Assembly (NCBI GenBank): GCA_022821875.1
Contig: JAJECV010000070.1
Location: forward strand, 18,676-82,675
DNA: 64,000 bases
From: Rhodothermales bacterium
Lineage (GTDB): Bacteria > Bacteroidota > Rhodothermia > Rhodothermales > Bin80
Reading direction: 5' to 3'
Under the pieces are notes generated by a model, which was given only the letters and a program-made list of their open reading frames with translations, made no database searches and was not told where the DNA came from. This document shows, in pieces, positions 29,616 through 54,013 of the stretch (position 1 is its first letter; every line of letters starts with the position of its first letter). The translations under genes were made by a program, and so were the position numbers.

Positions 29616-31083
29616 AATGCGCCTCCCGCCAAGTGCAGCATCCCTGTCCGCTTCAATGCGTGATATTGGATATTCACTGGAGACCGCTGTCGCAGACCTG
29701 ATTGATAACAGCATTTCAGCCAATGCAGGGAAAATAGACATTTACTGCATCACCGATACGGAAGAGCCCGTTATGGCCATTATTGATGATGGCCATGGGA
29801 TGGGAGCAGATGAGCTCATCCATGCCATGAAGCACGGCGGGACCGGCCGAAACCGAGAGCGAACGCCGCACGATCTCGGAAAATTCGGACTGGGACTGAA
29901 AACGGCCTCCTTCTCCCAGTGCAAACGCCTTACCGTTGTGAGTCGAAGGGGCGAAGAACTTAATGCAGCCGAATGGGATCTTGATATTGTGGACAACCGG
30001 GACGACTGGATCATCTCTCTTCTGAGTGAGGCAGAAATCCACAGACTTCCCTGTTTTGAACTACTGCCAGAGCGCGGAACCATGGTGCTCTGGCGTAATC
30101 TGGATCGGCTTTTCGGGGACTGTGAAGGGCCGGAGCGGCAGGAGTTGGTCAACAAACAGTTGGCTGAGATGCAACAGCATATTGCGCTGGTATTTCACCG
30201 GTTCATGGAGGGAAGTGTCCCATGGTCCAATCAATTACATATCTGTGTAAACGGCCACAGAGTCGATCCCTTTGATCCGTTTTGCCGGGATCATTCGGCG
30301 ACTCAGCATCAACCGCTCGAACGCATCCGCATCAAGTCTCAGGAAATTCTGCTTCAGGGATATATCCTGCCGCACCACAGCAAACTTTCTGCACAGAAAT
30401 TTAATCTATACAAAGATCAAAGCAGTTTTTTTGAGAATCAGGGAGTCTACGTATACAGGAACTGCCGCCTGGTTGCATGGGGAGGCTGGTTCCGTCTGAT
30501 TGCTAAAAAGAAAGCCGCACAACTGGCACGGGTCCAGATTGATTTCCCGAGTTCACTTGATGACTGGTGGACGATTGACATCAAAAAATCACGCGTCCAG
30601 CCTCCTCCGGCCGTCCGCACCCGCCTGCGTCAGATTCTGGACCGGATTATCACACCCAGCAAAAGGGTCTACCGGGAACGAGGACAGCGACTTATCCCGG
30701 ATGATCCTTATTCATTATGGGAACGGATCGCAAATCACACAGGCATCCGATATGTTTTGAACAGCAGGCACCCGCTGATTCAAAATTTGGCAAAGAAACT
30801 TGACCAGATCGGTCAGTCTAAATTGAACTTGCTTATTAATTCGGCCGGGGATGATCTTCCGGTGGACAGCATCTGCATGGATTGGAATGACAATCCGCAG
30901 AAACTATACTCTTCAAATCAGATAAATGAGTCCATCACGAAGCGCCTTGAACAGCTCCATAACAGTCTTCCGGAAGACTTGCAGTACGATATGGACGCAT
31001 TTCGTGAATTAGTGGAGGCGACCCACCTCTTTGATCAACACCGGGATATTGTTGACGCTTACATCGAACAGTGGCAATCATAA
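29605..31083 (+). CDS. GHKL (MutL/MORC-like, HATPase_c_3) ATPase
   Basis: N-box 'AVADLIDNSISA', G1 'IIDDGHGMG', G2 'LGKFGLGLKTAS'. The start is ambiguous (TTG 29599, ATG 29605 or ATG 29617). Confidence 0.8.
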   Translation: MPHEMRLPPSAASLSASMRDIGYSLETAVADLIDNSISANAGKIDIYCITDTEEPVMAIIDDGHGMGADELIHAMKHGGTGRNRERTPHDLGKFGLGLKTASFSQCKRLTVVSRRGEELNAAEWDLDIVDNRDDWIISLLSEAEIHRLPCFELLPERGTMVLWRNLDRLFGDCEGPERQELVNKQLAEMQQHIALVFHRFMEGSVPWSNQLHICVNGHRVDPFDPFCRDHSATQHQPLERIRIKSQEILLQGYILPHHSKLSAQKFNLYKDQSSFFENQGVYVYRNCRLVAWGGWFRLIAKKKAAQLARVQIDFPSSLDDWWTIDIKKSRVQPPPAVRTRLRQILDRIITPSKRVYRERGQRLIPDDPYSLWERIANHTGIRYVLNSRHPLIQNLAKKLDQIGQSKLNLLINSAGDDLPVDSICMDWNDNPQKLYSSNQINESITKRLEQLHNSLPEDLQYDMDAFRELVEATHLFDQHRDIVDAYIEQWQS

Positions 31084-33734: not shown

Positions 33735-33750
33735 CATCATCCAGCCTATT

Positions 33751-34755
33751 ATGACAACCGACTATCCTGAATCTCAACCGCACACTACCCCCTGGGATGA
33801 CATCAGGCAGCCCGATGCAGACTACAATGTTCGGCGCGTATATTCCAATGCACTGATCCCCACTTTCTGGGGCAAAGATGTGCACGGGAACTGCCTTCTT
33901 ATCACGGAACTTGAAGGAGATCATCAGAAAGCATTCCTGAACGCAAATCTGAACATTCAAGGTATTGATGTTGATCTGCGTCAGCGTTCAAGAAAACAGG
34001 AGCAGACTCTGGTGCTCACTCTGACCAGTCATTCCAATCTTGATCTTTTCTATGCACTCTGCAAACCACTGACGCGGAATCTCCGTGATGTTTCAAATTC
34101 GAGAACTGCTCTGACCATTGCGCTTAATCAGTTAAAACGCTGGCAGCGGTTCCTTGCAGGAAAAAGACCGCGCCTGCTGTCTCCCTGGGAAGTCCGCGGC
34201 CTTTTTGCAGAACTGCATTTTCTCAAACTGCTCTACACCCATCTCCTGAATCACGATGAAGCACTCAATGCATGGACTGGGCCGAAGGGGGGGAATCAGG
34301 ACTTCGTGTTTGGAAACACGGCCGCAGAAATCAAAACCATTTCGAATCAGGGGCCTAATCTTTTCAACATCGCCTCCGAAAACCAGTTGGAGAGCCCGGC
34401 AGAAAAACTGTATCTCACGGCAAGTCGCATCATTGAAAGTTCTGAACTCTCCTCGGCCATCTCGCTCAACGAAATGGTCACAAGGATTGAAAGTGATCTG
34501 ACTGGAAGTTCCGTACGTGATGAGTATCAGACCAAACTTGCCGAAGCCGGGTATGTGGAACTCCCCTACTATGACAATCCATCCATGCAGATTGCTGAAA
34601 TACGTGTATACGAAATCACTGATGAGTTCCCCCGGATTATCCGGTCCCAAATACCCGATGGAATTCAGAATGTGAAATACCAGCTGCAGATTGAGTCTCT
34701 AGAACCTTTCATCTGCCCACTTGAAACAATTTGGAATGTGAACCGATGCAACTGA
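33751..34755 (+). CDS. PD-(D/E)XK motif nuclease-family protein
   Basis: 'GGNQDFVFGNTAAEIKT' gives D...E-x-K. It lies between the Z1 and AIPR genes. An alternative start is ATG 33718. Confidence 0.6.
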   Translation: MTTDYPESQPHTTPWDDIRQPDADYNVRRVYSNALIPTFWGKDVHGNCLLITELEGDHQKAFLNANLNIQGIDVDLRQRSRKQEQTLVLTLTSHSNLDLFYALCKPLTRNLRDVSNSRTALTIALNQLKRWQRFLAGKRPRLLSPWEVRGLFAELHFLKLLYTHLLNHDEALNAWTGPKGGNQDFVFGNTAAEIKTISNQGPNLFNIASENQLESPAEKLYLTASRIIESSELSSAISLNEMVTRIESDLTGSSVRDEYQTKLAEAGYVELPYYDNPSMQIAEIRVYEITDEFPRIIRSQIPDGIQNVKYQLQIESLEPFICPLETIWNVNRCN

Positions 34756-36593
34756 CACTTGAGGAGTATTTTAACGAGTTCCGCAGGCAATTGCAGATTG
34801 ATGCAGAGAATAACTTTCAACGTAGCACTTTTCTCGAAACAGTCTCAGAAGAACTGAAAGAGACCGGTGCGATTAATGGATTTGAACCCTGCTATTACGA
34901 CCGGGAAAGCGGCAAAAAAGGCGGTATCAAGGTGGATGGATTCTATTTCAATGAAGACGGCACCACACTGGACCTGCACATTGCCGATTTTGAAAATAGA
35001 GTCACACTTGAGTCACTGAACAAGAAAGACTATGAAAGTGTGTTTGGGAAATGCCGCCGATTTTTTCTGACTGCCAGAAATAACCATCTCCATCTGGATC
35101 TTGATGAAACAGCACCTGAGTATCGGTTAGCCCGCGGAATCTATGACCGGAAAGACCGGATCCGACGCGTCAACTTCATCTTATCCTCTGAGCGGAAACT
35201 GAGCACACACAAAAAGGTGCTTGATACGCACGACTTAAGCGGTGTTAAAGCAGTCTACTCCATCTGGGATATCTCACGGCTGCACCGGCAGTACTGTTCA
35301 CGCGGAGGTCAAGAACCGCTTGATGTGGATTTCAAGGCCATGTTTCAGCAGGGGCTGCCATGTCTCAGGGCACATGTGGGGACCAACGTTTTCCGCACCT
35401 ACCTCGTGGTGATTTCCGGGAAAATTCTGGCAGGCCTGTATGAAGAGTTCGGGGCACGCCTACTGGAGCAGAATGTTCGGTGCTTCCTGCAGGCACGCGG
35501 AAATGTAAATAAAGGCATCCGGGATACTCTGATCCATGAACCCCACAATTTTTTTGCCTACAACAACGGTATAACCGCCACTGCACGGGATATTAAACTC
35601 AATGAGGACCGGAGCAGGATTATGCATATCCAAGATCTCCAGATTGTGAATGGCGGGCAGACAACCGCCTCGCTGTACCACATATCTCAGGCCAAAAATT
35701 CGCCGGATCTGTCCAGGGTTTTCGTCCAGATGAAACTCTCTGAAATAAGCGACAACCGCAGCATGGAGATCGTGCATAACATTGCCAAATATGCAAATAC
35801 CCAGAATAGAGTAAGCATTCCGGACCTCCGGTCGAATCATCCGTTCCATGTTCAGATGGAACAGTTTTCCCGCCGTATATGGGTTCCCGCCATCGAAGGT
35901 CAGTTTAAGGAGACAAAGTGGTTCTATGAACGCTCCCGGGGGCAATATGCAGATGCTCAATCCAGAATGACCCCGGGAGAAAAGAAGCGGTTCAAGACGG
36001 AATATCCTAAAAGATTCACCAAGACTGATCTTGCTAAATTTGAGAATGTCTGGGATGAAGAGCCGTTTTGGGTGAACTTAGGGGCACAGAAGAATTTTAT
36101 CCAGTACATGGAGAGAATCAGCAAGGCATGGGAAGAGTCCTCAGAGCAGTTTGACGAGACCTATTATCAAAGGGTGGTCGCCCGTGCCATCGTTTTCAAA
36201 GAAACCGAGCGACTCATCTCACGGCAGTACTGGTATCGGAAGCGGAGCGGGTATCGAGCCAATATTGTAGCATACACAATCGCAACCGCCAATGCGCTCG
36301 GAAAAAACAGGGACAGGATGTTGGATCACCAGAAAATCTGGAAAGATCAGGGAATTGACGATTCCTTCCGAGACCAGCTTGCCCTGATCGCGACCTTCGT
36401 CAGAGATGTTTTATACCTTGACGACAGACCGATTGACAACTGCTCGGAATGGGCGAAAAAGAAGGAATTCTGGACACACCTCAAACGAGATATGCCTGAA
36501 ATGAACCGAGAACTGACGAGGGATTTCTGGCGCTATTTCGTGCCAACTGAAGAAGTGACTCGCAGCCCCAGCGGGGAGAGTCTTGTCAAATAA
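34746..36593 (+). CDS. AIPR (abortive-infection phage resistance) family protein
   Basis: It has a 'FFAYNNGITATA' core motif at about 615 aa. It overlaps the upstream gene by 10 nt. Confidence 0.7.
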   Translation: MQLTLEEYFNEFRRQLQIDAENNFQRSTFLETVSEELKETGAINGFEPCYYDRESGKKGGIKVDGFYFNEDGTTLDLHIADFENRVTLESLNKKDYESVFGKCRRFFLTARNNHLHLDLDETAPEYRLARGIYDRKDRIRRVNFILSSERKLSTHKKVLDTHDLSGVKAVYSIWDISRLHRQYCSRGGQEPLDVDFKAMFQQGLPCLRAHVGTNVFRTYLVVISGKILAGLYEEFGARLLEQNVRCFLQARGNVNKGIRDTLIHEPHNFFAYNNGITATARDIKLNEDRSRIMHIQDLQIVNGGQTTASLYHISQAKNSPDLSRVFVQMKLSEISDNRSMEIVHNIAKYANTQNRVSIPDLRSNHPFHVQMEQFSRRIWVPAIEGQFKETKWFYERSRGQYADAQSRMTPGEKKRFKTEYPKRFTKTDLAKFENVWDEEPFWVNLGAQKNFIQYMERISKAWEESSEQFDETYYQRVVARAIVFKETERLISRQYWYRKRSGYRANIVAYTIATANALGKNRDRMLDHQKIWKDQGIDDSFRDQLALIATFVRDVLYLDDRPIDNCSEWAKKKEFWTHLKRDMPEMNRELTRDFWRYFVPTEEVTRSPSGESLVK

Positions 36594-36620: not shown

Positions 36621-38072
36621 CTAGTGCAATGCCCGGTCAAGTAGTTGTCGGTCAAGTTTATTGTCAATCTCGTAGGGAAAACGCTGAATAAATATATCAC
36701 GTGCAGTCCGCCATGGATCATTGTCAGAAGTTTGAAGATTAGCGGCCGTTCCCCACCAATTCTCCCCCTGGGTTGAGAGACAGAATGCAACGTAGTTGGC
36801 GAGAAATCCAGCATCTACTTGATTCTGGGCCGCAACTGTCTGAACGGCACGCTTCATTTTTCTAACTTCCCCCTTCGCCGTGCTGACACACTCTTGTAAT
36901 AGAATATCAGCTTTGCCATTGAGAACTACATCGGCAGCGAATTTGTTGGCGGCTAATTCTTCCGGAGAATCCCTGTACTCCGGCATTGTTTTATCCAACT
37001 TAATTACCTCAAGCGTATCGTCATCCGGCATTTGACCTGCGTGATATAACTCATGTAGCAGATCAAACTGCCATCTTGATTCATAGGCTGAATTCTGTTT
37101 CAATACAATGACATTACGATGTTCATATCTCCAGCACGCCCCATGAAATTTACCGGAGTCACACAGCGGTAAGATGGCTACACCAAAGTCCCAGGCGGTG
37201 TGCAAAAGATTTTGGAGACTAATACTGCCATATCTTTCAACTACGTATTCTCTAAAAACACCGGGGTTGGTAGGTACCGTATCTCTGGGGAGAGACTTTG
37301 ATCCATTCAGGACGAGTACGGCAAGATAATTGGCGTACGCTGCATACAGATCAATGGCATCCTGCCTGCGCCTGAGAGGCATTTTAAATCTCGCTTCGGC
37401 TGTAGCGAACTTTGGTGGTTCAAGTCTATCTGAACCGAATAAACCCTCACTGTTCCAACCGAAGATACGGTTCAGTACCACGGCAGTTCTGGCAGCAAGT
37501 GCAGTGTTTTCGTCCTGCGTCTCAATTTCACCCATAGCAAGGGATTTATCCCCCGAGGTCAGCAAACGATCTAATACAAATTTTTTCTCCAGACCGGCAT
37601 TGCGAAGCTTCTTGAGCAGAACCTGAAAATTCCCAGGCTGCACATGCAAAAAAATGTCATTCCTTATGTGCAATTCAAGGGCATCTGCTACTTCACGCAG
37701 GCGACTGTAACTAGCAGATGCATAACGCGTCGCTTCGTAACGCTGGATCTGCTGCTGTTTCAAACCCATTCGGAGAGCCAGATCCTGCTGGGTCAGACCA
37801 CTGGCAATTCGTGCTTTGATCAGCCCCTCGCCTAGTTCGTCAAACGAATTGACGCTGAATACTGAAGAACTTTGAGACTTTAGTCGATCATATTCATCCA
37901 GTTCGGCTGTAAGGTCTGCCAGCTGACTTTCCATCCCCTCACGCTCTGCTTGAATCAGGCGAGGTGATATATCCTTGCGATTCGCCTGATTGGATACAAG
38001 TTCCTCAATCGCCTCACGAAATTGATCCGCCTTCTTGCGGGTGATCCTGTACTGTCGCTCGTTGGTAATCAT
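36621..38072 (-). CDS. XRE-family HTH fused to ImmA/IrrE-type (DUF955) metallopeptidase
   Basis: HTH 'SGLTQQDLALRMGLKQQQIQRYE' and zinc motif 'LLHELYHAG' (HExxH). The ATG is embedded in an ATGA overlap with the upstream small ORF. Confidence 0.75.
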   Translation of the reverse strand: MITNERQYRITRKKADQFREAIEELVSNQANRKDISPRLIQAEREGMESQLADLTAELDEYDRLKSQSSSVFSVNSFDELGEGLIKARIASGLTQQDLALRMGLKQQQIQRYEATRYASASYSRLREVADALELHIRNDIFLHVQPGNFQVLLKKLRNAGLEKKFVLDRLLTSGDKSLAMGEIETQDENTALAARTAVVLNRIFGWNSEGLFGSDRLEPPKFATAEARFKMPLRRRQDAIDLYAAYANYLAVLVLNGSKSLPRDTVPTNPGVFREYVVERYGSISLQNLLHTAWDFGVAILPLCDSGKFHGACWRYEHRNVIVLKQNSAYESRWQFDLLHELYHAGQMPDDDTLEVIKLDKTMPEYRDSPEELAANKFAADVVLNGKADILLQECVSTAKGEVRKMKRAVQTVAAQNQVDAGFLANYVAFCLSTQGENWWGTAANLQTSDNDPWRTARDIFIQRFPYEIDNKLDRQLLDRALH

Positions 38073-38505
38073 GGGAGTGTGGCAAGGTCAATGTGAACGA
38101 TTCCTTTCGGGACATTGTTACGATCGGTTTTGAAAAAATTCTCATACGTAACTCCAAGGGCTGCCATGATTCCCGCCGGGAATAGTTCACCCTGGTATTT
38201 TGATTTCATGGCATACCGAGGGGACGAAAATCAAGCAATACCGGATCAAGGAGATCTTCATTGACACCCATCGTATACCAGACTCCGTCGTAGTCTTCCG
38301 GCAATTCTTTGTTGGACACAAAACTGCCATTGAGTAATACGGAACGACATCCCGCAGCAGCCAAGTTCTTCAAAGCAGCAAGTAATCCAAACAGTAAACG
38401 AGACCTATGCCCGTTAAAACCAAAATGGTCGGAGAAATTTGTCCAGTTCATCCGATGCGTTCCTGCTGGCAAATAGCCTGTCTCTGAATCAAAGTTTGGC
38501 AACAT
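38069..38505 (-). pseudogene. Minimal nucleotidyltransferase-like (DUF6932-like) gene, split into two overlapping ORFs (38505-38206 and 38209-38069)
   Basis: 'LPAGTHRMNWTNFSDHFGFNGHRSRLL...LLNGSFVSNKELPEDYD' (GS...DxD-like) is in ORF 1. A 46-aa ORF follows (MKSKYQGELFPAG...FFKTDRNNVPKGIVHIDL) that reads like the family C-terminus. The junction is ATGA and the second frame opens only 7 codons upstream. Confidence 0.45.
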
Positions 38506-38794
38506 TGTCAACAAGTACAACAATATCATTGTGTTACTGTTCCCAAGGAATGTCTTCCCACAATGAACTCTCACTGATAACGGTTTCCATTCAGCATTCC
38601 CCCTGCCTTGCACTTATATGGAAGGCTTAATAATTATTCACATCCCCCACTGATGGTCAGTATTTACCGCATCAGTCAATTTTCCCTGAATCTGAACCGC
38701 CCATCCAAACGAAAAACCGGACTGCAGCAATTCATTCAACGCCTTGAGACTCTGACGGGTGCAGCAACGAATTGCTGGAGGCCGATTACCAATA

Positions 38795-39451
38795 TTACAG
38801 TACGCTCGGATTAGTAAGCCCGGCGAAATAGTCTTTCAGATTATTCCACCTTAGCACAAGCGCTTCCTGCGACACTTCCTCACTTTTTTCTAGACGCACA
38901 AAGAATCTGCACTTCCCTTCTATGCGTCCGTCTCCTAGTCTATACATCTCTCTGGCAAAGTCAATCATTTCGGATTCACTGAGTTCTCTTTGATCATACG
39001 GGCGAACATACTGCTGTAACCCAGGCCACCCAGACTCTATGAGTTGTGTATTCAATCTAATTTGGTAGTCCGCTGGATTCACCCGGATCGTCATGGGGGA
39101 ATTGGGCTGCTTATCTTCGTCTCTTCCCAGACAACTGCGACTCCCGATTTTCCCCTCATCGTCCAGCAAATTCTCGATGGAGTCCTTAAGAACAATCACC
39201 AACTGAGCACTTGGATATTCATTTAGATACTCGTCAAATACATCCAGGAGGCTGTCTACCTGGGTTTGCAATTCGCTTATTGAGTCACGGAGTATCTCAT
39301 CGGTTTCTGGATTATCTAATCCATCATCGGCCGAATTATTATTGATGTAGGCCACCGTAACCGTACCCGAAAGAAATGCAATGACTAAAATTGCCGTCAT
39401 CAAATCGGTGATCGCGGGCCATACCGTAACCCTAGTCCGCTTCCGCCTCAT
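38795..39451 (-). CDS. MotB/TolR/ExbD-like single-pass membrane protein (stator plug/anchor candidate) with unrecognised periplasmic domain
   Basis: The N-terminus 'MRRKRTRVTVWPAITDLMTAILVIAFL' has basic residues followed by a TM helix carrying an Asp, in the W-x-x-x-(T/A)-D-L-M-T context typical of MotB/TolR. The start overlaps the upstream stop (TAATG). No OmpA-like peptidoglycan-binding motif was seen. Confidence 0.5.
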   Translation of the reverse strand: MRRKRTRVTVWPAITDLMTAILVIAFLSGTVTVAYINNNSADDGLDNPETDEILRDSISELQTQVDSLLDVFDEYLNEYPSAQLVIVLKDSIENLLDDEGKIGSRSCLGRDEDKQPNSPMTIRVNPADYQIRLNTQLIESGWPGLQQYVRPYDQRELSESEMIDFAREMYRLGDGRIEGKCRFFVRLEKSEEVSQEALVLRWNNLKDYFAGLTNPSVL

Positions 39452-41025
39452 TACTTTTCCCTTTCCATCTCCTTAACCATATCCGAAATAAGGTGAACAA
39501 GGCCCTGGATAATTTTTTCCAGGCTCTCGTGTGTATGCTGAACAGTTTCAATGTACATGTTCATCTTATCAGAGAGTGGGGCTAACGCTTCCGCGGTAGT
39601 GGAACCTACCACCTCGTTGATATTCGTCCCCACTTCCTCTAATTCCTTTGGAATTCCCGATAGAACTTGCGCGGCCTCTCGCAATTTATCTCCAAACTGC
39701 TGCGCAGCCTCAGGCATAGTCGCCGCCGTCTCCTCCAATCGTACAGCTATTCCTCCTAGAGGATTAACAATATGCTCCTCCATTTTATCGCGAAGTTCGC
39801 CGAAAGAATCAACGATTTTCTGGTTCTCGCTGATGAGCTTATTGATCTGGATAGCCTGACTATTTTCAAGTGAATCTGTGAATTCGGATAAGGAATCAAT
39901 GATTCTCTGATTCTCGCTGACGAGACTCCCAAACCGACGATCCTGACTACTTTCAAGCGATCTGATGAATTCGGATAAGGACTTGATTACCGTCTGATTC
40001 TCGGTGACAATCTTGTTGATCAGGTGCTCTTGCTTACTTTCAAGCGACTTCCCGAACTGGGATATTGCTTCCTGAAAAGCCCTGTCCAGTCCACTCACAT
40101 AGTTTCTTACCTCCCTTCCAAAAATCTCGTCTATCTTCTCCGCGTTAATTGATTTTTGGATTTTACCGGGTAGCCGCTCAATTTCTGTTGTTAGGGATTT
40201 TCTTTCATTAATCAGTCTTCTTAGAGAATCATCAACTCTCTCCAGCAAGTTTTGCTGATCTGTCTGGATTTTTGCGACGGATCCTTGCTGCTCCTTTGAA
40301 TAATTCTTTAATTCTATAAGCACTTCGTCGATTTTTTGGGTAACATCTTTCTGATTTTCCAATGCATCCCAAACAATAGCCTGTTGTTCTCCAAAACGCC
40401 TCTGCATATCATTCATCACGGCGGTCTGCCCTTGAAGAAACTCTGGAATCATCTCAAAAAGATCCAAAGCATCCGCCTCATTCCATGCCTCTGTCAACTC
40501 TTCTAGTTGTTTACTTAATTCGGATTCTGGGACTTTCTCTTGTGCCTGCGCATCCAGTAGTTCGGCTTCCTTCTTGCTTATCTGGTCATGTGCAGTGGAC
40601 AATATGCTAGATGTAATGTAGAGATGATTCAAGACACCAATTAAACTGGAAAGCAAGGCAAGGAGGAGGCCCAAAATAATCGCCCCAAACCACACGGAAC
40701 TTATATCTCTTGAATAACCTACCCATAGCCCTGTGGAAATTGCCTCCAGAAGAAAAATACCCATTGTCCCCCCAATACCGGCTACAAGGGCAGCATTTGA
40801 AAATGATCGGACTTTCTCCAGGGGAAGTTCCACCATCCGGTCAAACTGATCAATGACCACATCCGATGCGGTGACATCCTTGATGTCAAACTTTCTCAGA
40901 CTCAGGATATGGTCAATTTCTCTTAAAGCACGGTCGGAATCTCCAAAAATCTTTTTCTGCCACCATATCAGAAAAACGAACGCCCCAATTTCTATGACAA
41001 GAATCAGTGCAGCGATAAATCCCAT
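39451..41025 (-). CDS. MotA/ExbB/TolQ-like membrane protein with ~380-aa cytoplasmic coiled-coil tail (ZorA-like architecture)
   Basis: Three TM helices (aa 1-24, 76-100, 110-137), with 'AGIGGTMGIF' where MotA/ExbB has its G-rich TM2 motif. A long heptad-rich tail follows, containing three 29-aa repeats. Confidence 0.45.
   Translation of the reverse strand: MGFIAALILVIEIGAFVFLIWWQKKIFGDSDRALREIDHILSLRKFDIKDVTASDVVIDQFDRMVELPLEKVRSFSNAALVAGIGGTMGIFLLEAISTGLWVGYSRDISSVWFGAIILGLLLALLSSLIGVLNHLYITSSILSTAHDQISKKEAELLDAQAQEKVPESELSKQLEELTEAWNEADALDLFEMIPEFLQGQTAVMNDMQRRFGEQQAIVWDALENQKDVTQKIDEVLIELKNYSKEQQGSVAKIQTDQQNLLERVDDSLRRLINERKSLTTEIERLPGKIQKSINAEKIDEIFGREVRNYVSGLDRAFQEAISQFGKSLESKQEHLINKIVTENQTVIKSLSEFIRSLESSQDRRFGSLVSENQRIIDSLSEFTDSLENSQAIQINKLISENQKIVDSFGELRDKMEEHIVNPLGGIAVRLEETAATMPEAAQQFGDKLREAAQVLSGIPKELEEVGTNINEVVGSTTAEALAPLSDKMNMYIETVQHTHESLEKIIQGLVHLISDMVKEMEREK
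39781..40023 (-). repeat. Three tandem ~87-bp (29-aa) repeats inside the coiled-coil tail
   Basis: The units are IVTENQTVIKSLSEFIRSLESSQ.. / VSENQRIIDSLSEFTDSLENSQ.. / ISENQKIVDSFGELRDKM. DNA-level recurrence of TGAATTCGGATAAGGA...CTGATTCTCG is visible. Confidence 0.8.
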
Positions 41026-41027
41026 AT

Positions 41028-42395
41028 TTATTTACTCTCGCACTCCCGGATTTTCGGAGAAGGTATCTTTGAGTGATAGTAACTGGGCTGTATGCCTTCC
41101 ATGAATTGCTCAAGCCCAAGGGTTAGATCGCTACGATGCTCAACTGATGACCAGTCGGCCCAGTCCGCGGACTCTCCATATTCTACTCCCACATCAATAG
41201 ATGTATCACTGCACACTCCGGTACGATCCCCACGGATCGTTTCTCGAAGTGCCTTACAGTTGAGGTCCATATTAATCTGTGCGGCCTCATTATCGTCCTT
41301 ACTCACGCGAATGATCCCCTTCACATCATCCGTTTCCACTGATGTAATCGTCACCAGACTGTCTGCAAATCTGCCGGCCAAACTATGTGTTCCACTGTCT
41401 TTGCAATAGTAACCGTGCTCCTTATCAAGCCCAACAGGCTGAAAACCTGTTCCTTCATAAGCCAGCCAGTCGAAATTGGCCTGCCCGGTTAAGGAGCCTA
41501 GAGTTATGGTCGTATGCTTCACCCCCAATCCAATATCCTCAATAGACTCCGTAAACTCTGTTGCCAGATTGTGTACAGGGTTGTTTTCACGGCTATCCCC
41601 CCCTGGCCTCCGTCCCATAATGAGAACATAGATTGGCCTCTTCGCAACTGCTTCCATGGACTGATAGCGCTGCTGGCCTTCATGAAACCAGCAGCCTAAA
41701 GGTCCGGGTACCGAACGACATGTTCCACTGTGTACCCCCCAGTAATCAATGCGAATGCCTACGATGGCAACATCAATTTCACCTGCATTGTAGTATGCCC
41801 TTATTGCTGGATCTTTGAAGTACGGCAGCAGGGCTGTAGCCCCGATTCCATAGTTGGTAGTCGTAATCAAATCAGTAACCAGTGCTGCCCCTTTGAGCGT
41901 GCCGCTCTTGAGTCCTTCAATCACATCTCGAATGCCCTGATCCAGACGGGATTCTCCACCGGTAAAAAATCCTCTGTTCAAAGTGCTTTCACAATCTACC
42001 GTTGTAATGGAATCCGTGATTCCAAGGCACTTGAGCGAAGACTCCCCGCCCCCGTAATCTGTGGTCAATCGCGCACTCTTCAATAAATTGTGGATCCTCT
42101 GAAGCGCGTCCTGACTGTCTGGATTCGTCCGATGAACATATCCTCCCATCGGAATAGACTGATCCCAAAGAAGTTGAAAAACATGCCTGACCGAGTCACG
42201 GTCTACCGATTCCCATAATGCCTCCGAATCCTCCCATACCGGTTCAACTTCCGCAGTGACGCTGAGAAACTCACCTTCTTCTCCATCCGAAGATGAGGCG
42301 CAGCCAATTTGCAAAAACATCCCGGTCACCAGAAATCCTGCACCCACGATTGTCATCCACCACTGCGTGTCGCTATTGGAGCCTTTCCGTATCAT
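41028..42395 (-). CDS. Lipoprotein of unknown function (455 aa)
   Basis: TM/signal 'WWMTIVGAGFLVTGMFLQIGCASSS' with a lipobox-like Cys, and several further Cys residues. It has an ATGA overlap with the upstream gene and a 2-nt gap to the downstream gene. Confidence 0.6.
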   Translation of the reverse strand: MIRKGSNSDTQWWMTIVGAGFLVTGMFLQIGCASSSDGEEGEFLSVTAEVEPVWEDSEALWESVDRDSVRHVFQLLWDQSIPMGGYVHRTNPDSQDALQRIHNLLKSARLTTDYGGGESSLKCLGITDSITTVDCESTLNRGFFTGGESRLDQGIRDVIEGLKSGTLKGAALVTDLITTTNYGIGATALLPYFKDPAIRAYYNAGEIDVAIVGIRIDYWGVHSGTCRSVPGPLGCWFHEGQQRYQSMEAVAKRPIYVLIMGRRPGGDSRENNPVHNLATEFTESIEDIGLGVKHTTITLGSLTGQANFDWLAYEGTGFQPVGLDKEHGYYCKDSGTHSLAGRFADSLVTITSVETDDVKGIIRVSKDDNEAAQINMDLNCKALRETIRGDRTGVCSDTSIDVGVEYGESADWADWSSVEHRSDLTLGLEQFMEGIQPSYYHSKIPSPKIRECESK

Positions 42396-42946
42396 ATTTG
42401 CGTCTGTGTTCGTGGTTTACCGGTGGATTTCAAATCCGCAACGAATTCCTGAATGTTTTCCAGGCGATTTAATGCATCCCTGAGGATTGAGGCTTGATGA
42501 TTCCGGCGGCGGTCAAGTTGCCGCAGTACTCCATTCGCCAATTTCATCGCCCCTTTGACCGGTAGAGAAAGTAACCTAGAAGAAATCTGAGTACCCCGCC
42601 CGGATGTTTTTTGTGACCGAGAATAAACTGCTCTGGAATCCCCCTGCACTTCTGCCGGAAGTTCTCTCATTGTCTGAAATCGGGGCAAATTCTCTGCAAC
42701 ATCCAGCATATTTTGAAGGACACGTTGATCCAGCGAAGCGGGACGGCGATGTATTTTTGCATCAAGGCGACCCAGTTTTTCAATCACTGACTGGATAACT
42801 GGAATCGCCCCCCATTTGACCAGGAGAGAAGAAATCCGCAGCAGGACTGCTTCGTATAGAGAAATGCTGATCAGCGACAGATGGGACACAAGAAGCATGA
42901 AGCCTTCAAAATTTAGACTTGGCTCATTCATTGTAATCACAAACAT
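42392..42946 (-). CDS. Small helical protein with hydrophobic N-terminus (184 aa), unknown function
   Basis: ORF in an operon context. 'FMLLVSHLSLISISLYEAVLLRISSLLV' could be a TM or amphipathic anchor. No motif was recognised. Confidence 0.5.
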   Translation of the reverse strand: MFVITMNEPSLNFEGFMLLVSHLSLISISLYEAVLLRISSLLVKWGAIPVIQSVIEKLGRLDAKIHRRPASLDQRVLQNMLDVAENLPRFQTMRELPAEVQGDSRAVYSRSQKTSGRGTQISSRLLSLPVKGAMKLANGVLRQLDRRRNHQASILRDALNRLENIQEFVADLKSTGKPRTQTQI

Positions 42947-42992: not shown

Positions 42993-45900
42993 CTATCCTT
43001 CCTGGAATTCCCTTGACTTGAGCACATTCTCCCAGATAAGGGCTGCAATCGGTGCATCTACCGTATCATCACTCCGCGTTGCCTCGTCACCCGAAATGCT
43101 GTCATTGATTTCTTTCATGAAGATATCTTCAATCCTTTTTACGCCTTCGCCACTATTTGGAGAATGTATAATGAGCGGTGGATTGAATTCACCAATACAC
43201 AAACTAACCGACCTGCTGACTCCCTCAAATGGAAGTTTCTCATACCAATTTCTCCGTTCATCTTCGGTCCCTCTACTAAGGAGCAGCACATCCGACAAAG
43301 GAAAGCGATGGCTTCCCGCAACCGCTTTCTCCGGGCTCATACTCTTGCCGACCGCATGCTTAATTGGTCCGAGTTTCGGCGGCGAATCGTCCTTGTAATC
43401 AGCCGGGTACCACACCTTTTCTAGTGAAATACCCTCAAAGCCTACTTCTTTCCAAAGTTTGATGGCACGCTGCTTCACCCACTCTTCCATATCTTCCTGA
43501 ATCTCCTTATAACTCGTTCTACGGTACCAAAGACGCCACCCATTCCCCTTGAGATGGACGATGAGTTTTAACTTCTGAAGATCGCTCTCCGATTCCAGTA
43601 ACGGTAAGACATTTTTCGCAACATAGGCGACGAGGTTGCGAGCCAGAAAATCATTAATGACCCGGAAGTATCGATTGATTAATTCCCTTGCATCATTAGC
43701 ATCCTGAGGCTTTTCAAACCCCTTAAGTTTTAAAGCATCAGCACTCCAGTTCCTGCTCTGAGTTCCGAACAATTTCTCTGATCCAACCGAGCGCATCCAC
43801 GCACGTAGTTGTTCAAATGCCTTATCCGGCTTCCAGCCTCTATTCCTTGGCAAGTATTTTTCTGAGTGCCTTGCTAAAACTTGAAGAAGAAGATCACTCC
43901 CCATCTTTACACTTTCCGCCACCTCGCCAAATCCCCTGTCCTCAGACCCATAACTGTCTATATCCTTCGTCGCCATGAATATATCCAATGTTCCACCACC
44001 TAAATCAGCCACAAGTTTCACCGCAATCGGAATTCCTGGCCCTATTGAATCGAATGCGGCACTTGACTCGCTGTATAGCCCATTACCTTTGGCCCCTTCA
44101 CGGCCTTCCGTGAGCATGAACTTCGATCCAAGATCATCTTCACAGACATCCAATACCTTAACGACTACTTCCCCATAACGACTTGTAGCCTGCGTGGTGG
44201 TTCCACGCAAAGGGTACGTGAAAGTGACCTCAACTGTCCCAGGCAAACTCTCTTCACGCTTAGCGATATCTGCCAGGAAAATTTCGATTGCCATCCTGAG
44301 ATACCTCTCCCGAAGCCATTCTTCCTTCTGCGTAAATCGACCTCTATCCATCTCCCATTTGAACCCGGATATAATATGATTCTGGAGATCTGAGCGCTGC
44401 AGTTGCATAACGGGGATTGCATAATGCGTCATCGGAGCCCATTCATCCTTGAATCTCTCGGTCTCTACAGAATCAAGCTCTCCGAAAGACCAGAGATCTG
44501 ACGGCAGTAGCGCCTTTGATATTTTGTCCTCTTCCCCCTTTTTATAGGTTGGTCGCCATGTATCCAGTCCCATCTCTGCAAGGTGACCATCATAGTTTTG
44601 ACTGATATGCAACGATAAGCCATCCTCACCTGACAGTTCATTGTTAAGATTGACCAAATGTTTCTCATTAATCTGGTATGCGGCAACGGTATGGGAAGTC
44701 CCAAAATCTATGGCGAGTTTCCAGGTATTCTCGTCTCTGGAATATTCCTTCAGGCAAATTACATAGATCCCCGCATCACGATCTGTTTTGTGATCGTAGG
44801 CAGATAAAGCTACAGGCGGCCCTCCCACGTGTCGGCCATCCTTGAAATCCACGGCCTGACTGTATCCAGGGCGACTCAGTGGTCGCTTCTTCAACTCGGA
44901 CAGACTGCCTTCCTTGTCCAGATAAATGGTTTGAGCCTCCAGTCTTGGAGAATTCTCATACAGATAATAAGCACGCCACTGCTCCTTCCCGTTCGGCGCT
45001 TTAATGTTGGGCCAGATCATCCAGTGAGCATTTGAAGATTCGATACCATCCACAGAAATCGTGACCGGAACTGGTTCAGATCGCCCCAGAAGATCCAAGT
45101 TCCAATGAACGACTTTACGCCCTCTATCTACATTACCGGATTGTTTGAGCCGTCTCCAGGCATGGTCGTGATCTATGCATTTTTCTCCCTCATTTTTCTC
45201 GCCTTTCGGGATCTTCAAGAGATCAATGTAATCCGGGCGAAGCGGAATATCTGGATATAGCGTTTTATTTTCTCCGGTTCCATTCACCGATTTTTGGGTC
45301 AAAGGGACACAAGTATCAATCTGAATCGTTTCCCTGTCAATGACCTGCAGGTTCCGGATGTAGATTGGCTCTTCGCCTAACGTTTCCCTGATCCAGATGC
45401 CTCTATTCTCTTGGTCCCTCCTCCACGCAAAAATTTTACGCGTTTCCTGAAGTTGATCCAAATGCTCCCTCCATATTGCTCCAATCGTATAGTCAATATT
45501 TCTGGGCAATCGAAAGTTCTTGATGATCTCGAATGTTTCAGATTTGCGAGATTTCTCAACGGTACACTTTTCAAACTCGGGGACTCCGCTGATCAATTCA
45601 TCAATGCTTTTCTCCGCACCCTTTCTGCCGGGATCAAGATCTTCAAACAGATACAGAGAATCCCCCATAACGGGCATGGGGATTTTTACGTCGCCGCCCG
45701 GTAAAGGCAGCCATTCTGCAACCCCGAACGGACCGGCTTCCGCGTCCAAATGCGTGTCTAAGACATCAACCCAGATCCGGGAAGTCTCTTTGGCAACTTT
45801 GTCCTTAACATGGCTTTCCACGCAGTTCAGCCAACCTCTGACACACTTTCTGGCTTTTTCCCCCTCGAATCCCCAATCCGTAGAATCCCTCCAGGCGGAT

Positions 45901-48059
45901 TTGTCCTGATTATCAGAGCCAACTTTGTCTTTCACGCGGTCTGCTGCACGCTTGAGAGTGCCGCCGAGATATTTCCCGACTTTTCCGACTTCGTCTCTCC
46001 AATTCTTTGATCTCCAGTCAACATCCCAATGAATCCCCGTCAGGTCTTTCCAGAGACTTTCCCAATCTTCATTACTTACGTCTGGCGCGGGGCAGAGAAA
46101 TGTCTCCGGTGAATTGAACCCGTACACCTTACCGCTCTTCTGATGAATCAGACGGTACTCCGCTATATCTGTATCTGTATCCTTGATCAGACGCTCAAGA
46201 GACAGAAAACTCCGCCCATTTCTGGTTTCAACCTTCTGCAGTTCCAGTACGCCAATCGCTCGTCCCACCAAGAGCATTTCAAGTTTGCGCAGAGCAACAG
46301 GACTCTGATATACAATCTGGAACTTGTACTCTTCTACCACCGCAATATGATGTGGCCAGCTATTGGGGGACACATGGTCACGGTCAAAGTAATATTCAAC
46401 CGTACTACTGATCTTATCATCCGACACCTTTCCCAGTTCACCGGGTGCCCCCCATGTCGGTAAGAGCCCCGTATCGTTTTTGGAATCAATATCAGGCCAA
46501 TAGCCCTGCCCTTCGCGTGCCTTCCCTGACTTTTTGGCCAATTGCAGATTCTCCCATTCATCTTTAATCCAATGTGCAAGCCAATGAAAAAGACCCAATG
46601 CCATACACTCAACCTTGTCCAAATCGGACAGGCGTGTATTCTGTAACTCGGAAACACTGGGCAGTGACTTCTTTTTCAGTCGTTTAATGCATTCTTTCTC
46701 CGAAAGAAAGAATTTCCCTCCCTTCTCCTCCACACTGCGGCCCTCATATTGAATATCTCCCCGGCTTTCCTTTCCCAGCGACGATATCCATGCCAGAAGT
46801 TCCCGATAGGTATGCCGGATGGAATCCAGTTCATCTGCGACTTCTTTCAGGCTTGAACGATCATTCCGCAACTCTGAATTTGCCCAGTCAACAATGGCAG
46901 GGACAGGAGTCTGACCTGCAAAAATGAAGAAATTAGAAAACGATGCGTACCCTCCGTCTTTCGCGTTCTCTCCCGTTTTTCTTAACACATCGGAAAACTC
47001 TCCGAGTAGATATGTGAGGATCTGTGCATGACCGATCATCTCACGCAAGGTAGCGCCACTATCCTCCTTAATGATCATATCACCGGTCAGATAATCAGCA
47101 TCCGATGCCGATACACCATACAATCCTTCTTTGATTTCACGATCCTTTGTCGTCAGAAAGTATTTTATTCCTGCCAGTGCCCCGACCGCATGGGCATAGG
47201 AGTCCAAGGAGGGCTGTTGATTGTCGGATGTGTATTGGCGCAAGATTCTTCTATGATCCGGCACGCCTACCAGAACGGTAGGTACTTTTCTGGCCAAATC
47301 TTCCCCGTAGGATGCAAGTCCACCAGCTGCGTTCTCCTTCATCACCTTATTGCGTTCAACGGACTTGTCAAACTTCTCCCTTGATTCATCAGGCCTGCTG
47401 AACTGGAACCATCTATGCACCATGATCGCCATCACCTCAGCTTTCTTTTCCTTACACAGACGGGCAAGAGTTGGAGTGACAGATGAACCCGTTCCGCCGA
47501 CACTTGAACCGCAAACCACCATCCGCCGATCTCCACAATCGTTCAGCATATCGTTATAAGCCTCATCGTAATTCGGCTTACCCTTCCCCTCAATATCTAA
47601 CTCTTTGAGTGCAAACAGAAGCGACCCCACCGCAGGGGAGGCCATCATCCCCAGGGAATAGGTGATCTCCCGCTGTGCTTCGGATGTGATTAACGGGAGT
47701 CTGGGCGATCCCTTGAACTTGTACTTCAGGCGATGATTCGGGGGCTTATACCAATCTTTGCCTTCCCCGACAGGTAATGGACTGACATCCCGGCAGATTG
47801 GTTGATCCGGGCGACCGAAGAATTCCGCAAGATCATATTTGCCTGGGTGATTCTTGATTAAATTTTTGACTTCCTGCCAGGGAGTACTCTCCTCTTGCTC
47901 TTTCCCATCACCGGAATCCTGATCAACCAGAAACAGGTCTGGGAAATTTTTGCCTGCTTTGACAAAGAAGCCAAATGGGTATCCCAACATATGGAGACGC
48001 ACCATTGCCAGCATTACATGGGCACCAGTGCCCCCACACGCGATGAAACGATTATTCAT
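42993..48059 (-). CDS. Giant (1688 aa) protein: N-terminal FtsZ/tubulin-like GTPase motifs plus C-terminal actin/Hsp70-like (ASKHA) ATPase motifs
   Basis: At aa 5-20, 'FIACGGTGAHVMLAMV' is T1-loop-like. At aa 181-220, 'VVCGSSVGGTGSSVTPTLARLCKEKKAEVMAIMVHRWFQF' parallels FtsZ 'GGGTGTGAAPVIA..AKE.G.LTV.VVT.PF.FEG'. At aa 1114-1127, 'KLAIDFGTSHTVAA' is phosphate-1-like. At aa 1346-1363, 'AVKLVADLGGGTLDIFMA' is phosphate-2-like. No TM helix is present. Confidence 0.6.
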   Translation of the reverse strand: MNNRFIACGGTGAHVMLAMVRLHMLGYPFGFFVKAGKNFPDLFLVDQDSGDGKEQEESTPWQEVKNLIKNHPGKYDLAEFFGRPDQPICRDVSPLPVGEGKDWYKPPNHRLKYKFKGSPRLPLITSEAQREITYSLGMMASPAVGSLLFALKELDIEGKGKPNYDEAYNDMLNDCGDRRMVVCGSSVGGTGSSVTPTLARLCKEKKAEVMAIMVHRWFQFSRPDESREKFDKSVERNKVMKENAAGGLASYGEDLARKVPTVLVGVPDHRRILRQYTSDNQQPSLDSYAHAVGALAGIKYFLTTKDREIKEGLYGVSASDADYLTGDMIIKEDSGATLREMIGHAQILTYLLGEFSDVLRKTGENAKDGGYASFSNFFIFAGQTPVPAIVDWANSELRNDRSSLKEVADELDSIRHTYRELLAWISSLGKESRGDIQYEGRSVEEKGGKFFLSEKECIKRLKKKSLPSVSELQNTRLSDLDKVECMALGLFHWLAHWIKDEWENLQLAKKSGKAREGQGYWPDIDSKNDTGLLPTWGAPGELGKVSDDKISSTVEYYFDRDHVSPNSWPHHIAVVEEYKFQIVYQSPVALRKLEMLLVGRAIGVLELQKVETRNGRSFLSLERLIKDTDTDIAEYRLIHQKSGKVYGFNSPETFLCPAPDVSNEDWESLWKDLTGIHWDVDWRSKNWRDEVGKVGKYLGGTLKRAADRVKDKVGSDNQDKSAWRDSTDWGFEGEKARKCVRGWLNCVESHVKDKVAKETSRIWVDVLDTHLDAEAGPFGVAEWLPLPGGDVKIPMPVMGDSLYLFEDLDPGRKGAEKSIDELISGVPEFEKCTVEKSRKSETFEIIKNFRLPRNIDYTIGAIWREHLDQLQETRKIFAWRRDQENRGIWIRETLGEEPIYIRNLQVIDRETIQIDTCVPLTQKSVNGTGENKTLYPDIPLRPDYIDLLKIPKGEKNEGEKCIDHDHAWRRLKQSGNVDRGRKVVHWNLDLLGRSEPVPVTISVDGIESSNAHWMIWPNIKAPNGKEQWRAYYLYENSPRLEAQTIYLDKEGSLSELKKRPLSRPGYSQAVDFKDGRHVGGPPVALSAYDHKTDRDAGIYVICLKEYSRDENTWKLAIDFGTSHTVAAYQINEKHLVNLNNELSGEDGLSLHISQNYDGHLAEMGLDTWRPTYKKGEEDKISKALLPSDLWSFGELDSVETERFKDEWAPMTHYAIPVMQLQRSDLQNHIISGFKWEMDRGRFTQKEEWLRERYLRMAIEIFLADIAKREESLPGTVEVTFTYPLRGTTTQATSRYGEVVVKVLDVCEDDLGSKFMLTEGREGAKGNGLYSESSAAFDSIGPGIPIAVKLVADLGGGTLDIFMATKDIDSYGSEDRGFGEVAESVKMGSDLLLQVLARHSEKYLPRNRGWKPDKAFEQLRAWMRSVGSEKLFGTQSRNWSADALKLKGFEKPQDANDARELINRYFRVINDFLARNLVAYVAKNVLPLLESESDLQKLKLIVHLKGNGWRLWYRRTSYKEIQEDMEEWVKQRAIKLWKEVGFEGISLEKVWYPADYKDDSPPKLGPIKHAVGKSMSPEKAVAGSHRFPLSDVLLLSRGTEDERRNWYEKLPFEGVSRSVSLCIGEFNPPLIIHSPNSGEGVKRIEDIFMKEINDSISGDEATRSDDTVDAPIAALIWENVLKSREFQEG

Positions 48060-48075: not shown

Positions 48076-48384
48076 TTATTTCGCTTTGTTGGATTTCTTC
48101 TTTTTATAGGATGAAGTTCTTGCATGGAAAATCCCAAATCCCATTGCACAACTGGCAACGCATCCCAGGAACGCTCCTAGAACATGAGTCCACTTTTGCG
48201 CATCAGAGCAATCAGCACCGAAGAAAAGCCCGGCAAGAAAAAACGGGAGCAGTATTACGATAAACGGAAATAACTGAGCAGCAGAAAGCTTCGGTGCCGA
48301 CTCAGTTCTCCGGAGATTCCATTTACGTACAGCCCGACTTTGTAGAAAATAAAAGGCACCGTAGATAACAAGACTGACCAACAC
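48076..48384 (-). CDS. Multi-pass membrane protein; the reading frame continues upstream to a lipoprotein-type signal peptide and a C14 tract
   Basis: The ORF-track start is GTG 48384. The same frame is open up to 48540 and encodes 'HFLSKTSVLVLLFTVTGCSRLD' (signal plus lipobox VTGC). The two upstream ATGs (48551, 48544) are out of frame at the present tract length. Confidence 0.6.
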   Translation of the reverse strand: MLVSLVIYGAFYFLQSRAVRKWNLRRTESAPKLSAAQLFPFIVILLPFFLAGLFFGADCSDAQKWTHVLGAFLGCVASCAMGFGIFHARTSSYKKKKSNKAK

Positions 48385-48518
48385 CGCGACAAAGAATGTC
48401 TCTATAAACCCAAGGGTATAGTTGGTACCTGAGAACCCGCTCTGGCAGACCGTATCAAGTCGGGAACAGCCTGTAACTGTAAATAAGAGTACTAAAACCG
48501 AGGTTTTAGATAAAAAAT

Positions 48519-48532
48519 GGGGGGGGGGGGGG
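48519..48532 (-). repeat. Homopolymer G14 (C14 on the coding strand) in the 5' end of the first operon gene
   Basis: Direct count gives gg + gggggggggg + gg at 48519-48532. Confidence 0.95.
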
Positions 48533-49244
48533 TATTTTGTTCATGTGTCATTTTAGACTTTGAATTTGGGCGGATGACACTATCCCCCGTCACGGACATG
48601 CACCCCTGATGTATGGCACCGGAGGAACTCGCCGAATGTCTATGTCCTGCAAATCGTGAAGTGCTCATGGGATCTGACAATGTTGAAACGCCAAATATAA
48701 TGCATGGAGATGTTTTCACCAAACCGGCGGCATAATTGGGGACTTGCTGTTCCCCCCATGGGGATTTGGTTGCGGCCAGTCCGATTCGCAGTTCGCGGTA
48801 AACAGGGTCAGGACAGATCCGTAATTCGCGGCCGCAAAGAATCCGTTTAGGCTACCAGAGAATACAATTCAGAGCATTGTCACATCATGCTGCGGGGCTG
48901 CAGTGAACATGCAAGACACGTTGGATGTAGGAAAATGTACCCGTTTGAAATCCTTGAGATCCTGCAAAAATCTGAATAGTAGCCAGAGGATAGATACTCC
49001 ACACTCAAAGAGACAAGCCATCGTACTCCAAAAGTTCAAATGTGAAACCACATAATTGTGGGACTCTGTCGGCAATCACCAAAGTTGCCGACTGTCTAAT
49101 CCTGATGTGAGAATTTTTTGACCCCGGTATCGGGCGGACATATCCCTCCAGAGAATTTACTCTCGGAGCGAACAGAGAAACCCTCAATAATTGATTGAGA
49201 TTTGAAATCCTGCACAACCAACAAACCTCCAATCCCCCGCATCA

Positions 49245-50171: not shown

Positions 50172-50322
50172 GAGTCGGACTTTGGGCCCGGCACCAGTTA
50201 ATCAGTTTCCCTTCACGCATCTGCGCAGATCCTGTACACGAAAAAACACAACCTGTTGCGGAATCTGCAAAACCGCAACCCGTTGATACGGGCATGAACG
50301 CTCCCTCACGCCTCATACGAAA

Positions 50323-53700: not shown

Positions 53701-54013
53701 TCGTCAAATATCCTGCAGATACCTATCTCTTTCTTTTAATCATTGGACCAAATTATCTCCCATCTCCGTGCACTTAGTGATCCATCCGATAAAGTAGCAC
53801 CAGAACGTTCGCCATAGAAATATAAGCACCCCTCCGCAATTTTATTGAAGCCTGACTCTCAATTATTCAATCGGATCTGAAACATTGGTTACCTAAAGCA
53901 CGGAAACCACATCAACCCCACCTTCATCAAAATTACCGTAAAGCACCAGCCAAACCATTGGGCAGCAAGTTAGAGAAATCAGACCTCTCTCTCCTTTGCA
54001 CCAATGCTACGAA

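Follow-up and report, generated by a model that had tools for sequence, protein, structure and literature searches.

The stretch analysed here (the window) comprises 64,000 nucleotides of contig JAJECV010000070.1 from a Rhodothermales bacterium. Two adjacent genes on its minus strand, here called gene A (39451..41025, 524 amino acids, aa) and gene B (38795..39451, 218 aa), both start with ATG and share one base, the stop codon of A and the start codon of B forming TAATG. An earlier note, made from the sequence, described the segment 38795-41025 as encoding a MotA/ExbB-like and a MotB/TolR-like protein, and two minus-strand open reading frames (ORFs) occupy exactly these positions. Their features suggest that A and B are very divergent relatives of ZorA and ZorB, a ZorA-like stator A-subunit and a ZorB/MotB-like B-subunit, and that they belong to an undescribed Zorya-like system within a defence island.

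A search of 5.8 billion proteins retrieved 17 relatives of A and 9 of B, with identity down to 36-39%. A hidden Markov model (HMM) of the transmembrane (TM) domain of A, applied to 1.84 billion cluster representatives, retrieved 30 proteins, nearly all of them 400-800 aa long and of the same build, with a few shorter ones. Relative to the ortholog in locus L013, gene A has a ratio of nonsynonymous to synonymous substitution rates (dN/dS) of 0.32 and gene B one of 0.075. These relatives and ratios mark A and B as genuine genes, not ORFs that arose by chance. The family of A is carried by 3 of approximately 186,000 species genomes scanned with two short peptide patterns, all three being Rhodothermales metagenome-assembled genomes (MAGs), and tblastn gave no match to A or B on plasmids. 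Every locus used for comparison below (L001, L003 and so on) is a metagenome assembly.

Protein A begins with a TM domain (aa 1-138, encoded at 40612..41025, minus strand). Hydropathy gives three TM segments (aa 1-24, 75-100 and 106-139), and the layout assigned to the protein is TM1 (aa 1-24), a cytoplasmic helical hairpin (aa 24-76), TM2 (aa 77-100), TM3 (aa 113-138) and a tail (aa 139-524). This is the three-TM topology read earlier from the sequence, and the string AGIGGTMGIF, then placed in TM2, is present. TM1 is directly trailed by two lysines (KK), the loop between TM2 and TM3 is short, and the C-terminus is placed in the cytoplasm. This fits the N-out/C-in topology of A-subunits, whose last two TM helices line the helix of the B-subunit. 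Seven positions of the domain, R63, L80, G83, G86, T87, S127 and G130, are invariant in 25 sequences with identity down to 18%; G83, G86 and T87 lie in TM2, S127 and G130 in TM3. The AlphaFold2 model of aa 1-165, built on an 11-sequence alignment, has a predicted local distance difference test score (pLDDT) of 83.7 and consists of three long helices. When this model was compared with the PDB by Foldseek, ranks 1-46 were occupied exclusively by TolQ, ExbB, ZorA and PomA chains (probability 0.5-1.00).

When the consensus that the family yields for the TM domain was scanned with PADLOC, all matches were to type II ZorA models (E = 1.1e-5, 9.9e-4 and 7.5e-3), and a consensus fragment covering TM2, TM3 and the base of the tail matches type II ZorA models with E = 3.7e-6. 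The same models are matched by the TM domains of two real members of the family (E = 0.02-0.04), whereas none of the eight controls, namely the reversed consensus, five window-shuffled and two fully shuffled sequences, gave a ZorA match. The strongest sequence statistic is that of a consensus sequence. When the family HMMs were aligned with the experimentally studied type II Zorya of E. coli EDL933, GIGGT87 fell on GILGT61 of ZorA2 and LLSS127LIG130 on ITS95IVG98.

The rest of A is an alpha-helical tail (aa 139-524, encoded at 39454..40611, minus strand) of 386 aa; the earlier estimate had been about 380 aa, with an architecture known from ZorA, and both hold. Full-length A matches six ZorA models of PADLOC via this tail (best E = 2.7e-9), the matches to the ZorA1 and ZorA3 models ranging from 2.7e-9 to 9e-6. 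The NCBIfam model ZorA_3 is matched with E = 6.6e-4 in a collinear manner, residues 167-460 against 188-486. Hydrophobicity along the tail recurs with a period of 3.6, interrupted by several Pro/Gly breaks, and the Pfam matches of A are coiled-coil noise only. The C-terminal tip of the tail, aa ~420-524, is strongly conserved. Self-comparison of the protein revealed three tandem repeats of 29 residues (aa 331-417, encoded at 39775..40035, minus strand), which Tandem Repeats Finder did not pick up in the DNA. The number of copies among relatives varies from one to five, and the proteins are 465, 524, 553 or 582 aa long.

Protein B consists of a basic N-terminus, a TM helix with the motif VWPAxxD16LMT, a helical linker and a C-terminal alpha/beta domain (approximately aa 105-218). 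The hydrophobic segment spans aa 8-38 by hydropathy (TM helix aa 8-36), with five K/R residues before it and an acidic far side. The start RRKRTRVTVWPAITDLMTAILVIAF is as quoted in the earlier note, a basic stub running into a TM helix with Asp at residue 16. This predicted ion-binding aspartate (codon at 39404..39406, minus strand) is invariant in 13 members, as are those residues that surround it, V10, W11, P12, A13, L17, M18 and T19, and two cysteines of the C-terminal domain, C107 and C181. ZorB models of PADLOC are matched by members of this family, ZorB1 by 8 of the 13 and ZorB2 by 5 of the 13 (best E = 2e-4), in each case only with the N-terminus and TM helix; B of the window itself matches ZorB1/ZorB2 over aa 3-63, that is, the N-terminus and TM helix, with E = 0.013. 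In the family alignment W11...D16LM corresponds to W19...D24LM of ZorB2, with D16 on D24 (E = 7e-4).

The part of B beyond the TM helix is about 180 aa long and, as had been seen by eye, contains no OmpA-like motif: Pfam OmpA matches neither B nor ten of its relatives. The OmpA domain is replaced in B by the conserved alpha/beta domain with two cysteines, and the last ~110 residues are modelled at pLDDT 80-93. The invariance of C107 and C181 fits a periplasmic, disulfide-bonded domain. No OmpA, MotB C-terminal or ZorB chain occurs among the top 50 Foldseek matches of B. Among small domains the best match is the periplasmic domain of ExbD (8p9r_B, TM-score 0.65, root-mean-square deviation 3.5 A); the ExbD matches as a group have TM-scores of 0.50-0.65, deviations of 3.5-5 A and E = 0.4-0.8, are not significant and stand amid unrelated matches; hhalign against ExbD/TolR gave E = 0.73. 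The two invariant cysteines, the KK after TM1 of A and the five K/R residues before the TM helix of B place the tail of A in the cytoplasm and not in the periplasm, in agreement with the original description.

Three invariant residues of A and B, Thr87, Ser127 and Asp16, align with residues that are functionally critical in Zorya. In the solved structure of ZorAB, Thr147 of TM2 and Ser184 of TM3 contact the essential Asp26 of ZorB (PMC11946911), and D24 of ZorB is crucial in Zorya types I and II (PMC11890865). The similarity to stator families proposed in the earlier note is borne out by the first 46 Foldseek ranks, by the consensus match to type II ZorA models with clean controls and by the ZorB1 matches of the B family. 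Each statistic is modest alone; the lines of evidence, which also include the key residues and the collinear architecture, are independent and all point to one family, and a stator-type pair is supported. Sequence comparison supports ZorAB, especially that of type II, rather than MotAB as the closest relative of this pair.

The genes A and B are the last two of a cassette, which is rare and occurs mainly in Rhodothermales MAGs. The order of its genes is a small lipoprotein, a giant protein of 1600-1690 aa, usually a protein of ~150-184 aa, a lipoprotein of 400-480 aa, A and B. The same cassette genes precede A and B in every locus with enough flanking sequence. In L001, L003/4, L010, L011 and L012 the giant protein, the lipoprotein, A and B are encoded in this sequence amid different flanking genes, and the order of the cassette is retained even when the identity of A is only ~22-35%. 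This strict synteny supports a functional link of the giant protein with A and B.

The giant protein of the window (42993..48059, minus strand) has 1688 aa, with an N-terminal FtsZ/tubulin-like, GTP-binding region at aa ~160-240 and an Hsp70/actin-like ATPase signature in the C-terminal part. Its motifs are the GGTGSS loop (aa ~188), DFGTSHT (aa 1118) and DLGGGTLD (aa 1352); DFGTSHT and DLGGGTxD are invariant in the orthologs. Pfam PF00091 (Tubulin) is matched at the GGTGSS loop in all six orthologs, with E from 3.5e-6 to 0.015 and below the gathering score. A profile of the giant protein, compared with the PDB, matched FtsZ or the nucleotide-binding domain of DnaK/BiP/Hsp70 in 52 of 53 cases, all weakly (E = 0.08-2), whereas the single sequence matched nothing there.

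Between the giant protein and A lie genes for a protein of 184 aa with a hydrophobic N-terminal segment (42392..42946, minus strand), present in most cassettes and matched by tblastn in L013, L003, L001, L015 and L011, and for a predicted periplasmic lipoprotein of 455 aa (41028..42395, minus strand) with the lipobox LQIGC and six invariant cysteines. No known domain, and no vWA domain in particular, was found in the family of the latter by Pfam, NCBIfam, PADLOC and profile searches. By eye, its segments LLWDQSIPMGG and AALVTDLITT recall the strands of vWA domains that carry the metal ion-dependent adhesion site (MIDAS) and the TDG motif (DxSxP...TDL), with no support from Pfam. Besides A, B and the giant protein, no cassette protein matches a PADLOC, Pfam or NCBIfam model.

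The first gene of the cassette (48076..48551, minus strand), identified by tblastn and translation, encodes a small lipoprotein-like protein with several TM segments. It is present in the window and in five other loci, not in L001; tblastn comparison with the orthologs in L003, L011 and L010 gave E = 3.6e-34, 2e-23 and 4e-6, respectively. Just after its start codon lies a tract of 14 cytosines (C14, 48519..48532, minus strand; G14 on the plus strand), the only G/C homopolymer of eight or more in the 64 kb. Tracts occupy the same position in the orthologs: C10 at L013:2509-2518, L004:2444-2453 and L011:2498-2507, C11 at L015:2091-2101 and C12 at L003:2442-2453. Thus the position of the tract is conserved across orthologs of 24-46% identity and its length varies, even between the near-identical loci L003 (C12) and L004 (C10). 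The gene is in frame with its start in the C10 loci, whereas the window (C14) and L015 (C11) have no in-frame start; in the window the homopolymer tract puts the gene out of frame with the ATG. The tract may act as a phase-variable switch; alternatively, the assembly may be in error at this homopolymer.

Gene sets of defence type lie on either side of the cassette in the window. The two genes directly following B on the same strand, missing from other loci, encode a DUF6932 protein (38206-38613, minus strand; PADLOC PDC-M63A, E = 4e-5) and an ImmA/IrrE-like protein with HTH_3 and Peptidase_M78 domains (36621-38072, minus strand; PADLOC RmrA, E = 7e-9). Also immediately downstream, and encoded in the opposite direction, is a four-gene cluster HATPase_c_3 / Z1 / DUF4420 (PD-(D/E)XK) / AIPR (29599-36593, plus strand), which is a known set of abortive-infection or restriction type. 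The upstream region (49245-58011) encodes a DprA/SLOG-like protein, an MTaX1-HNH protein beside a C5 cytosine methylase (Dcm), and a pair made up of a SWIM zinc-finger protein and an SNF2/DUF3670 helicase. In other loci the cassette is adjoined by genes with GmrSD_C or SLFN_AlbA_2 domains.

Some further observations concern the cassette region. The GC content is 0.56-0.65 over most of 6-24 kb and 0.46-0.52 from ~24 kb on, which is consistent with a compositionally foreign defence island. The GC skew is -0.15 to -0.19 across the minus-strand cassette (38-48 kb). Past the stop codon of B (38700-38800, minus strand) there is a long imperfect hairpin with a T-run, a possible terminator; its folding energy is no better than that of shuffled sequences (z = -1.2). 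In L012 an insertion sequence gene encoding an rve integrase (L012:9021-10028) separates the lipoprotein gene from gene A. In L011 the genes of an FHA protein and a vWA protein are situated just upstream of the cassette (L011:1-1961).

Several results weigh against the assignment of A and B to the ZorAB family and to defence. Pfam MotA_ExbB (PF01618) matches neither A of the window nor ten distant relatives at E<=1, the NCBIfam models of TolQ, ExbB and MotA match none of these proteins, and the Pfam families OmpA, MotB_plug and ExbD match neither B nor its ten relatives even at E<=10. The TM domain of A from the window, scanned alone, has no match in PADLOC, phmmer with A and B against the PDB gave no stator chain, and the TM-domain profile of A produced four chance matches there, none to a stator. 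Profile-profile comparison by hhalign with TolQ+ExbB, TolR+ExbD and a single ZorA2 gave E = 0.03-0.73, not significant with such shallow templates of E. coli sequences; the window and the other loci contain no ExbB or TolQ homologs that could deepen them. For these templates, as well as for MotB, the register of the hhalign alignments was correct though not significant, and local hmmsearch with filters off had the same outcome. The best E-value of the Foldseek matches of A is 1.5e-2, none being below 1e-2, and their TM-scores are 0.38-0.49; the TM region of B is modelled at pLDDT of only 36-44. A scores 18.7 bits with the NCBIfam model ZorA, for which the cut-off is 250, and the matches of the tail are perhaps inflated by coiled-coil composition, since LmuB, PbeC and JetC models also surface. 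B lacks the Pal/OmpA-like peptidoglycan-binding domain that is essential in ZorB of types I and II, none of ZorC, ZorD, ZorE, ZorF and ZorG turned up when the remaining cassette proteins were scanned with PADLOC, and the one argument for a role in defence is the neighbourhood. Searches by sequence in Pfam, NCBIfam and the PDB are not sensitive enough to reveal the similarity of A and B to stators. With all this taken into account, we consider it moderately probable that A and B are a ZorAB-type motor pair of the MotAB/ExbBD/TolQR superfamily of ion-driven complexes in the inner membrane; the most likely role of the pair is anti-phage defence.

A possible mechanism can be outlined by analogy. 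The N-terminus of B would be cytoplasmic, with Asp16 in the TM helix and the two-cysteine domain in the periplasm. The TM helices of two B subunits would be situated inside a ring of, presumably, five A subunits, lined by TM2 and TM3, and Thr87 and Ser127 of A might form a polar ring that gates protons or passes them to Asp16. From each A subunit the helical tail of ~386 residues would extend into the cytoplasm, where the tails may bundle as a rod. The periplasmic trigger, by analogy with Zorya, would be a disturbance of the envelope, sensed by the two-cysteine domain of B, plausibly together with the two lipoproteins of the cassette, and not by an OmpA-type peptidoglycan anchor. The trigger would then open the channel, and the flow of ions would turn or shift A with its tail, whose conserved tip may recruit or activate the giant FtsZ-like/Hsp70-like NTPase as a cytoplasmic effector. 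An extended version of this scheme, in which all six genes form one system, with a Zorya-type motor triggered via lipoproteins, a tail tunable by repeats, an FtsZ-Hsp70 fusion serving as an effector of cytoskeleton type rather than a nuclease, and on/off switching through the poly-C tract, is tentative, and we give it less credence than the identity of the motor pair.

The pair might instead be an energiser of the envelope, similar to the Ton and Tol systems and acting through the ExbD-like domain of B and the lipoproteins, with the giant protein remodelling membranes, forming vesicles or serving a process similar to division. TolQ and ExbB do head the Foldseek matches of A, and the C-terminal domain of B, among small domains, is nearest to that of ExbD; the absence of an OmpA domain is also as in ExbD and TolR. 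However, the similarity to the ExbD domain is not significant (E = 0.4-0.8), the sequence profiles match ZorA and ZorB, not ExbB and ExbD, and the motif xADLMT in the TM helix of B is of the MotB/ZorB and not of the ExbD/TolR type. The two lipoproteins of the cassette, the FtsZ-like loop of the giant protein, one ortholog of which touches Pfam Tubulin_2, and the precedent of FtsZl1-vWA-OmpA operons (PMC2875224) would all suit such an energiser. On the other hand, it would leave the long cytoplasmic tail, a hallmark of Zorya absent from ExbB and TolQ, without a counterpart, a partner resembling TonB or TolA is lacking, and the cassette is very rare and patchy, has variable neighbourhoods and in the window lies between defence genes. 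We consider this explanation rather unlikely.

FtsZ-family proteins are often tethered by membrane-anchored helical proteins. A could be a membrane-anchored coiled-coil scaffold that, like EzrA or ZipA, tethers the giant protein, with B an unrelated bitopic partner and with no ion conduction or movement. The helical tail makes up most of A, and A of the window itself has no significant stator match in sequence searches. Such a scaffold leaves unexplained the invariant Gly, Thr and Ser residues of TM2 and TM3 and the aspartate in the middle of the TM helix of B at 18-30% identity, as well as the Foldseek list consisting of stators only and the profile matches to type II ZorA and ZorB with clean controls; an EzrA-like scaffold was rejected on these grounds and is improbable. 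Even less probable is a chance resemblance of hydrophobic helices between ORFs with no stator-related function. Taken singly, the statistics are marginal: the Foldseek E-values are about 1e-2, the HMM matches of the TM regions from the window have E of at least 0.013 and the hhalign results are not significant. Nevertheless, the fold ranking, the matching of A and of B each to the cognate Zor subunit and the negative controls converge, the three functionally critical residues are among the invariant ones, and the architecture and gene order are collinear. The reading of A and B as chance ORFs was likewise rejected on the strength of this convergence. It is the invariant polar residues within the membrane and the clean controls that make both a scaffold and a chance similarity unlikely.

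If A and B are a ZorAB-type pair, they bear on questions that are open for Zorya, the only known case of a flagellar-stator-type motor whose long tail relays a signal to the cytoplasm. These questions are how the signal starts, given the role of peptidoglycan binding, and what range of outputs the tail can control. In the cassette, motor core and tail are retained and both ends are exchanged: on the periplasmic side a different domain and two lipoproteins stand where Zorya has the OmpA-like anchor, and on the cytoplasmic side an FtsZ-like/Hsp70-like NTPase of 1688 aa stands where it has nucleases. Should the cassette be functional, anchoring to peptidoglycan would not be obligatory for this class of motors, and the tail would be a general output device. 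The variants with different numbers of the 29-residue repeat provide a natural test of dependence on tail length.

Comparison with known systems shows features of several of them. As in ExbB-ExbD and TolQ-TolR, A has the three-TM N-out/C-in topology, and the best structural matches of its TM domain come from these systems (8vlw_B, 5sv0). Like TolQ, it has a GxxGT motif in TM2, and the residue of TM3 that corresponds to TolQ T178 is polar; T87 and S127 fall on TolQ T145 (by eye) and T178, and the G130 region on G181. B resembles ExbD and TolR in the absence of an OmpA domain and in its small alpha/beta periplasmic domain, the resemblance to ExbD being weak. In contrast to these systems, neither MotA_ExbB nor ExbD of Pfam matches the pair, the equivalent of TolQ E173 / ExbB E176 in A is Leu, ExbB and TolQ have no counterpart of the 386-aa tail, the cassette encodes neither a TonB nor a TolA partner, and the TM motif of B is MotB/ZorB-like.

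Of the flagellar stators, PomA is among the Foldseek matches of A, and the TM motif of B, PAITDLMTAILVI, aligns with IAYADFMTAMMAF of MotB, with D16 on D32 (hhalign, not significant). Unlike MotA and PomA, A has three and not four TM helices and no torque-generating cytoplasmic domain; unlike MotB and PomB, B has neither a plug nor an OmpA domain, and there are no flagellar genes nearby.

The giant protein is reminiscent of the FtsZl1 operons, which encode membrane and OmpA-family partners and for which a membrane-associated machine was proposed (Makarova & Koonin 2010, PMC2875224); MotA, TolQ and Hsp70 each have no occurrences in the main text of that paper. Both are large proteins encoded with secreted or membrane partners, and in both the N-terminal FtsZ-like GTP-binding region is divergent and detectable only from about the T4 loop to H5. 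They differ in that Pfam Tubulin_2 is touched by only one of six orthologs of the giant protein (E = 0.036) and that Pfam detects no vWA or OmpA domain in the cassette.

The likeness to Zorya, represented by ZorA2/ZorB2 of E. coli EDL933 and by the S. kujiense structure (PMC11890865, PMC11946911), is the most extensive. The gene order is A followed by B, and the cassette sits in a defence island. As in type II, a compact three-TM domain is followed by a cytoplasmic tail with a conserved tip, ~386 aa in A and ~440 aa in ZorA2. The Thr of TM2, the Ser of TM3 and the Asp of the B-subunit in the context W..xxDLM are conserved and aligned, and in PADLOC the TM parts of A and B match only ZorA and ZorB models. 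Apart from the periplasmic domain of B and the missing known effectors, the differences are the loop between TM1 and TM2, longer in A than in ZorA2, and the set of partners, which here consists of the FtsZ-like/Hsp70-like protein of 1688 aa, a small membrane protein and two lipoproteins. Literature searches brought up no Zorya type that is combined with proteins of this kind, and the whole cassette may be a new system built around a Zorya-like motor.

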